This document shows positions 5,148-10,998 of a stretch of DNA of 17,400 nt, one piece after another. Source of the stretch: Promethearchaeota archaeon. Lineage in GTDB: Archaea; Asgardarchaeota; Lokiarchaeia; Sigyniarchaeales; SOKP01. The notes under the pieces were generated by a model, which did no database searches, was not told where the DNA came from, and saw only the letters and a program-made list of their open reading frames with translations. The stretch is from NCBI GenBank assembly GCA_048938855.1, contig JBHLLT010000043.1, positions 1-17,400 of the forward strand. Reading direction: 5' to 3'. The position numbers were made by a program, and so were the translations under genes. Numbering within the stretch: position 1 is the stretch's first letter; each line of letters opens with the position of its first letter.

Positions 5148-6299
5148 ATGAGAATAAAAATTTTTCAAGATTTAATTAAAGAAGTACATGAATTTGGTAT
5201 TTGTCAACAATGCGGAGGCTGTGTAAGTTTTTGTAATTCGATTGAAAATGAAGTAATTGGCTTTAAGGAACCTAATTCACCCCCAGAATATATAAACAAA
5301 GACAAATGCCTTGAGTGTGGTATATGTTATTTGATTTGTCCACAAACGCATCTTTTAGATGATGATCTTAATAATACTTTTAACTTTTCAGATTTTTCAT
5401 CAATGCCTATAGGTTTTGTTGATAATATTTATTCATGTAAATCCACAGACGAAGAATTTTTGAAATTTGGGACAGATGGAGGCGTTGTTAATACAATTAT
5501 AAATTATTTAATAGAAAAGAAAATTATTGATGGAGCTATTGTAGCAAAAACAAAATCTACATTTTCGAGAGAAGCTAGCATTGCAAAGACTAAAAAAGAT
5601 TTGATAGATGCTTCAGGTACAAAACTAGATATGTCTTCACAATTAGATACCGTACAAAAATTTCATACATACGTAAGTTCACTACCTAAATTAAAATATT
5701 TTAAATCCAAAAAGTTAGCACTTGTAGGAACGCCATGCCAGATTTATACAATTCGATGTATGCAAGCTTTAGGAATAATACCATCAGATAATATAGAAAT
5801 TTGTCTTGGTCTATTTTGTTATGAGAATTTCTACTTTGATAGAACAAAATTGAAGCAATTTGAAAAACAATTTAAGGTTAAAGTAAAAGATATTAAGAGA
5901 ATAAACATTAAGGAAAATCTAATTATTGAATTGAAGGATCATGACGCATCAAAAAAACCAATTAATATCCCTTTTGAAGATTTAACTGATTACATGCGAC
6001 CTGCTTGCGGTGTTTGTAAGGATTTTACAAATATTTATGCTGATATCTCATTTGGAGGATTAGGCTCCTCAGATAAACATACCACTGTAATTACCCGAAC
6101 TAAAAAAGGAAAAGAGATAATCCGTAATGCAATTAGAACAGGGTTAATCAAGTCCTTGAGTATGGATAATAACACTAAAAATATTATGAAAGAAAAATTG
6201 ATCCATTTTTCTCAATCAAAAATAGCAAGAACAGAGCAAAATTTAATAAATAAATTCAAATCTGGGAAAATTCATTCATTGAAATCTACGAATAGTTAA
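5148..6299 (+). CDS. Second F420 hydrogenase/dehydrogenase beta-subunit family protein (FrhB/FdhB-like) with N-terminal ferredoxin domain
   Basis: CQQCGGC, CLECGICYLICP, TDGGVV, ASGTK, GTPCQ, LGLFCYENF, CGVCKDF...ADISFG; GGTGA SD; clear paralog of 1419..2534. Confidence 0.88.
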   Translation: MRIKIFQDLIKEVHEFGICQQCGGCVSFCNSIENEVIGFKEPNSPPEYINKDKCLECGICYLICPQTHLLDDDLNNTFNFSDFSSMPIGFVDNIYSCKSTDEEFLKFGTDGGVVNTIINYLIEKKIIDGAIVAKTKSTFSREASIAKTKKDLIDASGTKLDMSSQLDTVQKFHTYVSSLPKLKYFKSKKLALVGTPCQIYTIRCMQALGIIPSDNIEICLGLFCYENFYFDRTKLKQFEKQFKVKVKDIKRINIKENLIIELKDHDASKKPINIPFEDLTDYMRPACGVCKDFTNIYADISFGGLGSSDKHTTVITRTKKGKEIIRNAIRTGLIKSLSMDNNTKNIMKEKLIHFSQSKIARTEQNLINKFKSGKIHSLKSTNS

Positions 6300-6392: not shown

Positions 6393-8942
6393 ATGGATAT
6401 CTATTCCATATTATCTCATCCATTTCGAAGAAAAATCTTGCTTCTTTTGGAAAAAGAAGGATACATCCCCTATACTGATTTAATGGAAAAATTGGGTTTA
6501 GAAACAACAGGACAATTAAATTTCCATCTTAAAAGACTTGGTTCCCTTATAAATAAAGATAAAAAATCGTATTTTCTCACAGAAGACGGAAAACGTGTAT
6601 TACAAATACTAAATCTTAATAAAAGAATTTTATCAGGAGATAATATTGATGAATATTTAGATTCAAAAGGAAGTGAAATAAACAGAATTGGAGTAATTAT
6701 TTGTAATTGTAATACAGAAATTTCAAACTCGATTAATATAACAGCACTTGAAAATTATGTGAATAAACTGAGAAAGGTAGTTTCTGTAAAGATATTTAAA
6801 AATTTATGTCAACAAAAAAATTTTGACAAAATTACGCATTGGGTAAAAGACAATTTCTTAAATAAGATTGTAATTGCTGCATGTTCTCCAAGAACTCATC
6901 AAAGTCTTTTTGAACGGATTTTTGATGGAGTTATTGACCACGTCAATATAGAAATTGCAAATATTAGAGAACAGTGTTGTTGGGTTCATCAATTTGAAAC
7001 AAATCAAATAGATCCATCACTTTCATTAGAAAAAGTAAAATTATTAATAGAAGCTGCAATTGAACGTGTCAGTCTCCAAAAAAAAGTAAAAGTCAAGAGA
7101 GTTGAGATTGAGAAGAGTGCTGCGATTTTAGGAGGTGGAATCGCGGGTATAACTCTTGCCTTAAATTTAGCTCGTGCTGGAATAAAAGTTTATGTGATCG
7201 AAAAATCACCTACTTTGGGAGGTAAGGTTGCTAGGTGGGATCGAATTCATAATATGGGTGATTGCTCAATATGTTTCATTTCAGAATTAATAGGGGAGTT
7301 AGTAAATGAAAAAAATATAAAGGTGTTTACTAATACTGAAATTGAAAATGTTTCAGGAGAAGTAGGGAATTTTACACTTAATTTGATTAAAAAACCTCGA
7401 TATGTAGATATTAAGAAATGTACTGGTTGTAAACAATGTATAGAAGTATGTAGTATTGAAAAACTAAACCAATATGAATTTGGCTTAGTCAATAGAAAAA
7501 TAATCTATATCCCATTTATTCATTCTTTCCCATATGTTCCTTTAATTGATGAATCAGATATTAATAATTGTCTTAATTGTAGGATATGTGAACGTGCTTG
7601 TGCAAATAAAGCAATTGATTTATTAGAAAAGCCAGAAAAAATTGAAATTAAAGTAGGAACTAAAATTATAGCTATTGGTTCTGATCTTTATTCAGATTTA
7701 GGAGAATATTCGTATAACCCACATAATGATATAATTACTTCATCAGAATTTGAGCGAATGGTATCCTCTGATGGATTTACTGAGGGAAAAATAATAAAAA
7801 TTTCTGATAAGAAACCTCCAGACACAATTTCAATTATTCAATGTGTAGGGCCTCCTGGTTGTCAACATAAACTTCAAGATATTCTAGCATTAAAATATTT
7901 AAATTATATTGAAGTAAAAATTCCAAACTGTAAAGTTAACGTTTTTTATGATTTAAGTAAAATAAATAAAAATGATAACTTTTTACTAAGATCCACGGAT
8001 TCTAGAATACATTATTATAATAAAGTGAAAATTCTTGAAAAACACAATCAAAAGATTGTTAAAGCCGACTTAAAAGAATATCCTAGCGATTTAATTATCT
8101 TAAATCAAACACTAGTTCCAAATGAAGATTTAAAGGCATTTCGAAAAACAATGGATTTTACATTAGACGATTATGGATTTATGAGTGAGGAAACATTAGC
8201 CTCAGGAATTTATGGGGCTGGAACTATATTTGGTCCATTAGATTATAATTCCACGATATCAACTGCTAATAACACTGCGGTTAAAATTATATCACTTCTC
8301 TCTAAAGATTTTCTAATAGCAGAATTTAGTGGAATTGAAATTGATGATAATAAATGTGGTTTATGTGGATTGTGTTCTGAAATTTGTCCTTATAATGCAA
8401 TTACAATAGAATCGGATAAAATAAGTATAGATAAATTTAAATGTAAAGGCTGTGGTACATGTGTTAGTGTTTGTCCTACTACAGCGATTGATTTAAATAT
8501 TGATACTTCTGAAAAGATTTTAAAGACAATTGAAGTTTTTTCGAAATTCAGGAAACGACCAAAAATTATTGCATTTTGTTGTCGATCTTGTGGTTATGCC
8601 GCTGCTGATGATGCTGGTCTTAAAAAAATCTCCTATAATCCAAATATTTTTATTTTACGAGTTCCTTGTACTGGTCGCATTGATACTAATTTTATTATTA
8701 AATCCTTTGAATTTGGTTTTGACGGAGTAATGGTAATCGGTTGCCGTAAAAATGCTTGTCGATATATTGATGGAGTAGAAAAAGTAGAAAAAAAACTTTT
8801 GTTATTAAAAAATATTATCCCAAAGAAATATAGTGAGCGGATAATCCTTAAACATATGAATGCAGTTGAGGGCAATAAGTTTGCTGAAATAGTTAATAAA
8901 TTTTATGGTAAATTATTGGAGGAGGTTGAATTTGAAGCGTAA
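6393..8942 (+). CDS. Fusion protein: ArsR-like winged HTH + degenerate HdrA-like flavoprotein + MvhD domain
   Basis: N-terminal ~80 aa LSHPFRRKILLLL...YTDLMEKLGLETTGQLNFHLKRL...YFLTEDG (wHTH). HdrA motifs GVIICNC, AACSPRTH, NIREQCCW, GGGIAG, DCSIC and two ferredoxin domains. C-terminal MvhD motifs FCCRSCGYAAAD, RVPCTGR, GCRKNACRY, NAVEG. Confidence 0.88.
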   Translation: MDIYSILSHPFRRKILLLLEKEGYIPYTDLMEKLGLETTGQLNFHLKRLGSLINKDKKSYFLTEDGKRVLQILNLNKRILSGDNIDEYLDSKGSEINRIGVIICNCNTEISNSINITALENYVNKLRKVVSVKIFKNLCQQKNFDKITHWVKDNFLNKIVIAACSPRTHQSLFERIFDGVIDHVNIEIANIREQCCWVHQFETNQIDPSLSLEKVKLLIEAAIERVSLQKKVKVKRVEIEKSAAILGGGIAGITLALNLARAGIKVYVIEKSPTLGGKVARWDRIHNMGDCSICFISELIGELVNEKNIKVFTNTEIENVSGEVGNFTLNLIKKPRYVDIKKCTGCKQCIEVCSIEKLNQYEFGLVNRKIIYIPFIHSFPYVPLIDESDINNCLNCRICERACANKAIDLLEKPEKIEIKVGTKIIAIGSDLYSDLGEYSYNPHNDIITSSEFERMVSSDGFTEGKIIKISDKKPPDTISIIQCVGPPGCQHKLQDILALKYLNYIEVKIPNCKVNVFYDLSKINKNDNFLLRSTDSRIHYYNKVKILEKHNQKIVKADLKEYPSDLIILNQTLVPNEDLKAFRKTMDFTLDDYGFMSEETLASGIYGAGTIFGPLDYNSTISTANNTAVKIISLLSKDFLIAEFSGIEIDDNKCGLCGLCSEICPYNAITIESDKISIDKFKCKGCGTCVSVCPTTAIDLNIDTSEKILKTIEVFSKFRKRPKIIAFCCRSCGYAAADDAGLKKISYNPNIFILRVPCTGRIDTNFIIKSFEFGFDGVMVIGCRKNACRYIDGVEKVEKKLLLLKNIIPKKYSERIILKHMNAVEGNKFAEIVNKFYGKLLEEVEFEA

Positions 8943-9690
8943 AGTGGCTATAATATCTTTAACTTCTTGTAGTGGTTGTATCTCTTCACTTATCTCATTA
9001 GATATTTTTCCACAATTCCTTGAGAGAACAAAAATAGACTATTTTCAATTTATAAGCGATATGAAAGATATTGAAGATTGTGATATTTGTTTAGTAGAAG
9101 GTTGTATTTCTGAAGAAAATCAAATAGCTATGCTTAGGAAAATTCGAACTCAAGTAAAGAAGGTATATGCATTAGGAACTTGTGCTTGTTTCGGAGGGAT
9201 TTTAAGTTTATCCGATGCAAAAACAACTCAACAAATTTCAAGTTTTATTGAAATTGATGGTATGATTCCTGGTTGTCCACCGCCTATAAAACTTTTTGGA
9301 AATTGTTTAATTCGGTTAGTTGAAAATAAAGAATTAGAATTATCTGAAAAAAATATGTGTGGTACGTGTCCATTAAAGGGAAATATGAAAATAAATTCAA
9401 ATATAAAAATCTCAAAACTTACTCCAAACCCAGATGAAATAAAAATTGAAGAAGAAAATACAGAATGTTTTTTAGAAAATGGAATTTTATGTCTCGGAGC
9501 TATAACAAGAGATGGATGTGAACATAAATGTATTAAGATGGGGCTTCCTTGTGAAGGATGTATGGGCCCTGTATCAAAAGATTATACTTCTAATGTCATT
9601 AACTATTTGAGTTTGATTAATTTATCTAAAGAAATCAAAGATTACGCTGGAATATTTTATCGATTTTCAAAACCAAAATTGGAGGGATGA
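8932..9690 (+). CDS. Group 3 [NiFe]-hydrogenase small subunit (MvhG/HydD-like)
   Basis: SCSGC, EG, GTCACFGG and PGCPP motifs; C-terminal CGTCP...CFL...CLG...RDGC...C...PCEGCMGP. Likely TTG start at 8932 (GGAGGT SD at 8921-8926), overlapping the upstream stop. Confidence 0.88.
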   Translation: MKRKVAIISLTSCSGCISSLISLDIFPQFLERTKIDYFQFISDMKDIEDCDICLVEGCISEENQIAMLRKIRTQVKKVYALGTCACFGGILSLSDAKTTQQISSFIEIDGMIPGCPPPIKLFGNCLIRLVENKELELSEKNMCGTCPLKGNMKINSNIKISKLTPNPDEIKIEEENTECFLENGILCLGAITRDGCEHKCIKMGLPCEGCMGPVSKDYTSNVINYLSLINLSKEIKDYAGIFYRFSKPKLEG

Positions 9691-9693
9691 AGG

Positions 9694-10998
9694 ATGTTAA
9701 AAGTCATTGATGTTTGTAAACGAATTGAAGGTCATGGTGACATAAAAATATTACTTCAAAACGATGAAATATCATTAGTAAATTTTGAATTTGAGGTTTA
9801 TAGAGGTTTTGAAAACTTTTTAGTAGGAAAAGCTTTATTTGATATTCCAAAAATAGTCTCTCGTATATGTGGATTATGTTATACGTCTCAAGCAATCACT
9901 AGTTGTAAGGCAATTGAAGATATATATGAGATCAGGGTATCAACGCAAACAAAACTCTTGAGATGTATTTTAATGAATGCGGAAATGATCAAATCCCATT
10001 CTATGAGTTTCTTTTTCCAAACCCTCCCAGACTTATTAAATATATTTAATATTACTCATAAAACCACCAACCCTTATGATTTAATTAATTATGATCCTAA
10101 ACTAACCACAAATATTTATGAATTAATTAAAATTGGCAATGAAATAAATAATTTATTTGGGAGCAGATCCGTTCATCTAATTTCCGTTATTCCTGGAGCA
10201 GTTATTTATTCCCCTTCCAAAAAGAACATTTCAATAGCTAAGAAAAAATTTCAAAGTGCTTTATTCAATTTAGAATGGATTATCGAAAAATTTATTGAAT
10301 TATTTTCTCATCAAACTCCTCCAAGCGAATTTTCTACTCCAAATCTTATTTATCTCGGTCTCACTAAATTTGGAAATTACAGTCGATATTCTGGGAAGTT
10401 ATCAATCAAAGAAAATAATAAAAATATGATAGAATTTGAAAAACATAATTATTCTTCATATTTTGAAAAAGAACCAGATTTACGAGGAATTGACTTTCAT
10501 TTTGATAATAAAAGTAATGTGATTGTTGGCCCTATTAGTCGCTACAAGATTAATGAAAATTATGGTATCGACGAAATTCAAACTTATCTTGATTATTTCG
10601 ATAAATCATGGAAAAATAATATACTTTTTGCGAATTTTATTAGGTTATTAGAAATGTATATGGAAAGTTTCCAAAGCATACAATCTCTAGACCATCCTGA
10701 TTTAACCATTAAACAAAATGCTCCATCTCTTAATACAGTAAAAAATGTTGAGGGAATTGGCGTTATTGAAGCACCTAGAGGTACACTTGTACATCATTAT
10801 CACCTAAATAATCATAATTCTATTGATCGTATAAAATTGTTTGTTGCTACCGAGTTCAATATTCCATTGATAAATACCATGATTACAAATTCTGCTAAAG
10901 GATTATTTGAAAAGACTGGAGATATTAATTTAGTTAAGAATAATGTCCAGAAAATAATTAGAGCTTTTGATCCCTGTATCTCTTGTGCAACACATTAA
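9694..10998 (+). CDS. Group 3 [NiFe]-hydrogenase large subunit (MvhA/HydA-like) lacking a C-terminal extension
   Basis: RIEGHG, RGFENFLVGK, RICGLC (L1), EAPRGTLVHHY, RAFDPCISCATH* (L2). Confidence 0.92.
   Translation: MLKVIDVCKRIEGHGDIKILLQNDEISLVNFEFEVYRGFENFLVGKALFDIPKIVSRICGLCYTSQAITSCKAIEDIYEIRVSTQTKLLRCILMNAEMIKSHSMSFFFQTLPDLLNIFNITHKTTNPYDLINYDPKLTTNIYELIKIGNEINNLFGSRSVHLISVIPGAVIYSPSKKNISIAKKKFQSALFNLEWIIEKFIELFSHQTPPSEFSTPNLIYLGLTKFGNYSRYSGKLSIKENNKNMIEFEKHNYSSYFEKEPDLRGIDFHFDNKSNVIVGPISRYKINENYGIDEIQTYLDYFDKSWKNNILFANFIRLLEMYMESFQSIQSLDHPDLTIKQNAPSLNTVKNVEGIGVIEAPRGTLVHHYHLNNHNSIDRIKLFVATEFNIPLINTMITNSAKGLFEKTGDINLVKNNVQKIIRAFDPCISCATH

Follow-up and report, generated by a model that had tools for sequence, protein, structure and literature searches.

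The histidine that closes the L1 motif of the large subunit has been described as conserved in all [NiFe] hydrogenases but the bacterial H2 sensors, and glutamine in its column is a hallmark of the group 2b sensors (PMC5665086). The DNA analysed here (17,400 nucleotides of contig JBHLLT010000043.1 from a Promethearchaeota archaeon, termed the window) encodes a group-3-like large subunit with glutamine at this position, and an earlier note on the sequence suggested convergence on sensor-type active-site properties. The locus thus raises the question of whether the glutamine marks an archaeal H2 sensor or a working hydrogenase whose active site has been altered in another way.

The window large subunit and its L1 motif

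The features of the large subunit are as follows.

9694-10998, + strand: [NiFe] hydrogenase large subunit P0001, 434 aa, identified by PF00374, an AF2 model and its TM score to MvhA
9862-9891, + strand: L1 motif RICGLCYTSQ (R57-Q66), with Ni ligands C59 and C62, and L61, Y63 and Q66
9889-9891, + strand: CAA codon of Q66, which replaces the L1 His
10018-10020, + strand: Q109, in the gas-gate Leu column (second L1 Cys +47)
10969-10998, + strand: L2 motif DPCISCATH, with Ni ligands C428 and C431 and a TAA stop directly after it

Translation of the open reading frame at 9694-10998 gave the spacing C59-x2-C62-x3-Q66, and the motif as first read in the earlier note was confirmed by this translation and by alignment to solved structures; the protein departs from the L1 consensus RxCGxCxxxH in having Q66 for His. 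In HMMER, the large subunit aligned over its full length with 7t2r_D (the NiFe large subunit of A. mobile, E 3e-52) and end to end with MvhA (5odc_F, E 8e-43) and with a third solved group-3 large subunit, HoxH (5xf9_D), and Q66 fell in the column of the L1 histidine in all three alignments. The PF00374 score was 93 bits against a curated cut-off of 25.8, and that of the NCBIfam VhuA equivalog 150.5 bits, below its cut-off of 800. The AF2 model (pLDDT 87.9, pTM 0.90) had MvhA 5odc_F as its best structural neighbour, with a TM score of 0.88. Across a 50-sequence alignment, C59, C62, C428, C431, R362 (the pendant Arg), D426 and P427 are invariant, and conservation is 90% or higher at H434 and at E12, the Glu of RIEGHG that serves as proton relay. 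No C-terminal extension follows H434.

Frequency of glutamine at the L1 histidine column

The earlier note had left it to be seen whether glutamine is common in ordinary group 3 enzymes and whether orthologs carry histidine. Of the 120 cluster representatives closest to the window protein (51-92% identity, with source names of Promethearchaeota, Lokiarchaeota and other Asgard labels), 118 have a readable L1 motif, and it ends in glutamine in every one of them, so that the orthologs keep glutamine, not histidine; in all 119 with a readable L2 motif, the protein ends directly at the L2 His. The best 150 matches were tabulated from a search that ran without profiles through all of 1.8 billion 50%-identity representatives. 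In these 150, the last residue of L1 is H in 108, Q in 9 and Y in 7 and is unreadable or fragmentary in 26, and all nine glutamine rows fall among the closest matches. Column 66 holds Q in 30 of 31 rows of the Gln clade and in none of 118 other group-3 cluster representatives (H 111, Y 7), so glutamine is not common in ordinary group 3.

Large subunits were also read from related genomes. Q66 is present in 48 of 53 non-identical proteins, encoded by CAA in 44 and by CAG in 4, and the five His carriers are sister lineages and one canonical paralog. As the glutamine is kept in 118/118 and 48/53 of the sequences in the two sets, with both codons in use and histidine one base away, it is neither a sequence error nor a product of chance. 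A literature search of incomplete coverage found no paper that mentions glutamine in Asgard L1 motifs, which leaves novelty unproven.

Phylogeny and origin of the glutamine

A FastTree overview of all 160 rows placed the window protein in a 31-row clade with 100% support, nested in a clade of about 40 rows (40-41) with 98% support. The window clade did not group with VhuA-like enzymes: HoxH, the paralog on contig 42 of the same genome and the VhuA-like rows (P0139, P0143 and P0147) form a separate cluster, and sulfhydrogenase-like rows form a second one. HoxC branched with HoxG, outside all group-3 rows. Because HoxC is phylogenetically this remote, the likeness of the window clade to group 2b and HoxC in this residue appears to be convergent.

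An IQ-TREE 'quick' tree was built from 50 rows after removal of the L1 and 105-109 columns. It recovered a 28-row clade with 100% support, consisting of 27 Gln rows and one nested His row (P0126), and two changes suffice for column 66: glutamine arose once in the Lokiarchaeial lineage and reverted once. The immediate sisters with histidine have the motif RICGLCSSAH (P0130, L057 and L062) or KxCG[FV]C[SA]AAH (P0133, L059 and L063).

Several other variants were observed in these alignments. The His row P0126 (RVCGICYASH) keeps Q109 and lacks a tail, and can be regarded as a natural revertant; locus L047 has Q66 together with H109. A set of the Gln-clade sisters (P0133, P0144, P0163, P0221, P0237, L059 and L063) has Lys for the L1 Arg, and their L2 motif ends in V, L, A or Q, not His; L059 and L063 still lie behind a wHTH-HdrA-MvhD gene (see below).

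Tyrosine takes the place of the L1 histidine (RICGICPVAY) in a sulfhydrogenase-like group-3b clade with 97% support (P0185, P0189, P0242, P0246, P0259, P0260 and P0272). This clade is a second natural replacement of the 'invariant' L1 histidine and shows that the residue is replaceable in presumed-metabolic enzymes.

Changes around the metal site, gas gate and C-terminus

The gas-gate residues of the D. fructosovorans enzyme are V74 and L122, and its Ni ligands are C72 and C75. Gate columns placed at -1 and +47 from the second L1 Cys gave V77/L125 in HoxG, I62/F110 in HoxC and L61/Q109 in the window protein, L61 being in the column of D. fructosovorans V74 and HoxC I62; I62/F110 of HoxC are the published sensor gate residues. 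The titles of PDB entries 3cus (Ile/Phe double mutant), 3h3x (V74M) and 4ueq (V74C) confirm these as the engineered gate positions of D. fructosovorans. The residues at the gate columns and at two further L1 columns were distributed as follows in the Gln clade (31 rows) and in the other group-3 representatives (118 rows).

Column 61: Gln clade L 30; other group-3 I 64, V 33, L 9
Column 63: Gln clade Y 16, H 14, F 1; other group-3 mostly P or S
Column 66: Gln clade Q 30; other group-3 H 111, Y 7
Column 109: Gln clade Q 30, N 1; other group-3 L 93, M 11, F 11, Q 0

The clade signature is CGLC[YH]xSQ ... FFFQ ... DPCxSCxxH-stop. Deeper Gln members carry 5-11 residues beyond the L2 His, and the crown group, which includes the window protein, carries none. 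These patterns show that Gln66 came as part of a coordinated remodelling with Leu61, Tyr/His63 and Gln109, and that the crown group, window included, later lost the endopeptidase-cleaved C-terminal tail.

An altered gate residue was considered as an exclusive trait of the wHTH-linked clade and rejected, since Phe or Met occurs at column 109 in 22 of the 118 other group-3 representatives; only Gln is exclusive to the Gln clade at this column. Next to the gate, the window protein has S105 (10006-10008) in SFFFQ, where most clade members have HFFFQ; column 105 of the Gln clade holds H in 19 rows, N in 8 and S in 4.

Operon and partner proteins

Three genes on the same strand lie upstream of the large subunit.

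8905-9690, + strand: MvhG/VhuG-like small subunit P0002, whose Cys ligands for three FeS clusters line up with those of VhuG
6393-8942, + strand: wHTH(DUF7347)-HdrA-MvhD fusion P0003, a conserved partner gene of the hydrogenase clade
5148-6299, + strand: FrhB-family gene P0004 with an N-terminal ferredoxin domain, upstream of the fusion

The cysteines of P0002 for the proximal, medial and distal clusters are in register with those of VhuG/MvhG. In the fusion protein, the wHTH-HdrA clade has lost a set of four cysteines at P0003 residues 484-496 (window 7842-7880) that both canonical HdrAs keep, and it retains nearly all other FeS cysteines. The window operon contains no hdrBC genes and no kinase gene, and a look for palindromes in the AT-rich intergenic regions returned low-complexity matches only.

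Gene context was compared at thirty loci from related genomes. The order wHTH-HdrA-MvhD, small subunit, large subunit was found at 28 of the 30; the Gln-type loci L054 and L060 have no HdrA match upstream, and at L053 the contig ends before the N-terminus of the fusion. The same gene order is present in the His-type sisters L057, L059, L062 and L063, at 30-35% identity. Since His-bearing sisters have the same wHTH-HdrA-MvhD, the DNA-binding partner predates the glutamine. The canonical paralog at L061 (RICGICPVSH, 24-residue tail) lies behind an HdrA-MvhD gene without the wHTH. An FrhB-family gene directly upstream is confined to the closer, genus-level relatives.

Genome distribution and maturation genes

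The genome to which the window belongs (97% complete) carries exactly two [NiFe] large subunits, and no group-4 subunit was found in it. The second large subunit, on contig 42, is VhuA-like (RICGVCPVAH, 27-aa tail) and has a HycI-type protease gene adjacent. When 400 genomes of the phylum were searched, strong matches to the window protein (E < 1e-100) were limited to three families of one class, that of the window and two more, and weaker Gln or His relatives occurred in three other families. Two closed genomes of a sister family, G135 (4.4 Mb, 1 contig) and G138 (6.0 Mb, 1 contig), gave no large-subunit match at E 1e-20, indicating that not every member of the order has the Gln-type enzyme.

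In five MAGs of 93-99% completeness (G200, G264, G162, G163 and G273), the Gln-type gene was the only hydrogenase found, with no other PF00374, no PF00346 and no [FeFe] hydrogenase detected in any of them. Two of the five, G162 and G163, come from the same genus, and this speaks against assembly gaps as the whole cause. MAG incompleteness remains a caveat, given the lack of detectable HypD in the genome of the window (see below).

Most genomes of the family carry HypD (PF01924). It was not detected in the 97%-complete genome of the window despite the two [NiFe] hydrogenases there, and this absence is probably an assembly gap. For this reason the presence or absence of HypD was set aside as a sign of cofactor synthesis in the Gln-only genomes. 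Absence of an endopeptidase was considered as a sign that no processing is needed and was rejected, as every Gln-only genome keeps one stand-alone HycI-like endopeptidase gene, and so does the genome of the window. In the latter, this HycI-family protease (189 aa) is encoded on contig 34 (L004:1342-1911, - strand), unlinked to hydrogenase genes and beside a multi-PAS protein; its homologs are kept in the five genomes whose sole hydrogenase is tailless.

Proposed role of Gln66

The L1 histidine (His88 of DvMF, His82 of R. eutropha MBH, His75L of Mbh) adjoins the bridging L2 cysteine and is the entry of the proton 'histidine pathway', and its protonation was computed to lower the second proton-transfer barrier and to act as a pH switch (PMC11228991). 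By analogy, the amide of Gln66 probably keeps the hydrogen bond to the bridging Cys431 thiolate that normally comes from histidine, and, being unprotonatable, would shut the histidine pathway and its pH switch, with the Glu12 route alone left. Gas access and the proton-coupled steps would also be changed by the gas-gate residues Leu61 and Gln109 and by Tyr/His63, which adjoins the bridging Cys62. In the proposed mechanism, H2 would be activated at this site and the electrons would pass to the small subunit, to MvhD and on to the DNA-binding HdrA. The proton-coupled steps would be tuned unlike those of canonical Mvh, and the enzyme would probably be slower and poised at Ni-C like the bacterial sensor, whose Ni-C to Ni-R behaviour is unusual (PMC5665086). 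The mechanism that we favour is that of a working hydrogenase that may also set the redox state of its DNA-binding partner.

Our main reading, to which we assign a probability of about 0.6, is that selection put Q66 in place of the L1 histidine and that this change defines a separate Lokiarchaeial subfamily among the Mvh-like hydrogenases of group 3, with an enzyme that is catalytically competent, retuned and feeds a DNA-binding HdrA. A retuned working hydrogenase is favoured because glutamine alone is not diagnostic of sensing, because the wHTH partner is older than the glutamine, and because the enzyme appears to be the sole hydrogenase in some relatives. Counted against this reading is that an HdrA with one four-Cys set lost and a DNA-binding domain fits a regulatory device at least equally well.

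Such a device could be a dedicated H2 sensor, in which the Gln-type hydrogenase and the wHTH-HdrA-MvhD protein would together act as a transcription factor complex that senses H2 at low turnover, the archaeal counterpart of HoxBC-HoxJ-HoxA, with Gln66, the altered gate and the missing tail as adaptations to sensing. We consider this doubtful. Three sensor-like traits do coincide (glutamine at the HoxC Q67 column, a residue other than Leu where HoxC has F110, and a C-terminus without extension), but the HoxC glutamine itself 'seems not to be involved in H2 sensing' (PMC5665086), and glutamine alone is then no proof of sensor properties. The obligatory partner has a wHTH domain and has lost one set of FeS ligands, yet His-bearing sisters share that partner, so that the regulatory-looking architecture predates the glutamine, and the genus has an FrhB-family gene directly upstream, which points to an electron partner in metabolism. 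In the genome of the window, the canonical VhuA-like hydrogenase, with its histidine, 27-aa tail and adjacent endopeptidase gene, could be the working enzyme; however, the five near-complete relatives without any other [NiFe], group-4 or [FeFe] hydrogenase would have no H2 metabolism to regulate, and a sole hydrogenase is more readily understood as a working enzyme than as a pure sensor. Of the convergence on sensor-type properties that the earlier note had suggested, the part concerning the residue therefore stands, with HoxC remote and with the missing tail and the changed residue at the HoxC F110 column beside it, and the step from the residue to sensor properties is not supported as it was put.

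Lineage-specific drift, in which a conservative change from His to Gln that is silent in function was fixed once and then inherited, seems improbable to us. Glutamine would still offer an N-H donor with about the same reach, HoxC Q67 is reportedly dispensable for sensing (PMC5665086), 3b-like enzymes include a Tyr-for-His clade and P0126 has reverted to histidine. Against these points, the glutamine has been kept over a range of 31-92% identity with histidine one transversion away and both Gln codons used, and three further active-site positions, just as fixed, vary together with it.

From the invariant catalytic core, the confident MvhA-like fold, the small-subunit cysteines and the presence of HypD in most genomes of the family, we infer that the large subunit binds a NiFe cofactor, with an FeS relay in the complex. 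A degenerate, non-catalytic hydrogenase-like scaffold resembling NuoD in complex I is accordingly very hard to credit, for although neighbouring lineages of the larger clade without the L2 terminal His and with Lys for the L1 Arg point to relaxed constraint in the wider group, the four metal-binding cysteines, Arg362 and Asp426 are invariant, Glu12 is found in 90% or more of the aligned sequences, the small subunit retains its FeS ligands, and HypD occurs in most genomes of the family.

The clade provides a large, natural and independently evolved Gln-bearing set inside group 3, with His-bearing sisters and one revertant, and so a ready-made comparative system for the effect of a second-sphere residue on proton delivery, redox-state populations and catalytic bias. 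Its signature separates the Lokiarchaeial subfamily from ordinary Mvh, and genome-based Asgard models annotate such genes as 'group 3c / Mvh'; if the enzyme were a sensor or strongly biased in direction, reconstructions of Asgard H2 metabolism and syntrophy would need revising. Should the Gln-type hydrogenase with wHTH-HdrA-MvhD prove to be a sensor after all, which we think unlikely, it would be the first archaeal H2-sensing transcription factor, contained in one complex and independent of bacterial HoxBC. It would then share the active-site solution of HoxBC (glutamine for histidine, an altered gas gate and a pre-processed C-terminus), and gene expression in these syntrophic relatives of the eukaryotic ancestor would respond directly to the partial pressure of H2.

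Comparison with known systems

New Asgard group-3 [NiFe] clades (subgroups 3e-3l) are announced in a preprint (bioRxiv 10.1101/2024.07.04.601786), whose accessible passages do not mention the glutamine substitution. The Gln clade is probably one of these Asgard subgroups.

The MvhAGD-HdrABC and VhuAGD complexes of group 3c (PDB 5ODC, 9SW2) resemble the window system in fold, in the MvhG/VhuG-like small subunit and in having MvhD and HdrA as partners. In contrast to Mvh/Vhu, the window large subunit has Gln66 instead of His and Gln109 instead of Leu and lacks the C-terminal tail, and HdrA and MvhD of the window are fused, carry an N-terminal wHTH, have one four-Cys set fewer and are not accompanied in the operon by hdrBC, whose products work with group 3c enzymes in heterodisulfide reduction. 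The best sequence match among solved structures is the electron-bifurcating HydABCSL of Acetomicrobium mobile (PDB 7T2R), which differs in its L1 His, its gate-column Leu, its 25-residue tail and its partners, HydABC rather than HdrA.

HoxBC of Cupriavidus necator (group 2b) shares the glutamine at the L1 His column, Q67 in HoxC and Q66 in the window. Regulatory hydrogenases of group 2b are further marked by low turnover, by Ni-SI and Ni-C as their only states, and by insensitivity to O2. HoxC translated from pHG1 has the motif RVCGICSVSQ with C60, C63 and Q67, in agreement with the positions given in the earlier note, and ends in DPCMVCTVH; in the membrane-bound HoxG, the motif is RICGVCTGCH and the tail is 15 residues long. 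HoxC is also like the window protein in that the large subunit ends at the L2 His and in having a residue other than Leu at the gate Leu column, but the gate pairs differ: HoxC has I62/F110, which narrow its gas channel, and the window protein has L61/Q109. The output of HoxBC is gene regulation, and the partner of the window hydrogenase carries a DNA-binding domain. The routes are different, however: the signal of HoxBC passes to the kinase HoxJ and the regulator HoxA, both encoded beside hoxBC on pHG1, whereas the window partner is a flavo-FeS HdrA-MvhD protein with a wHTH of its own.
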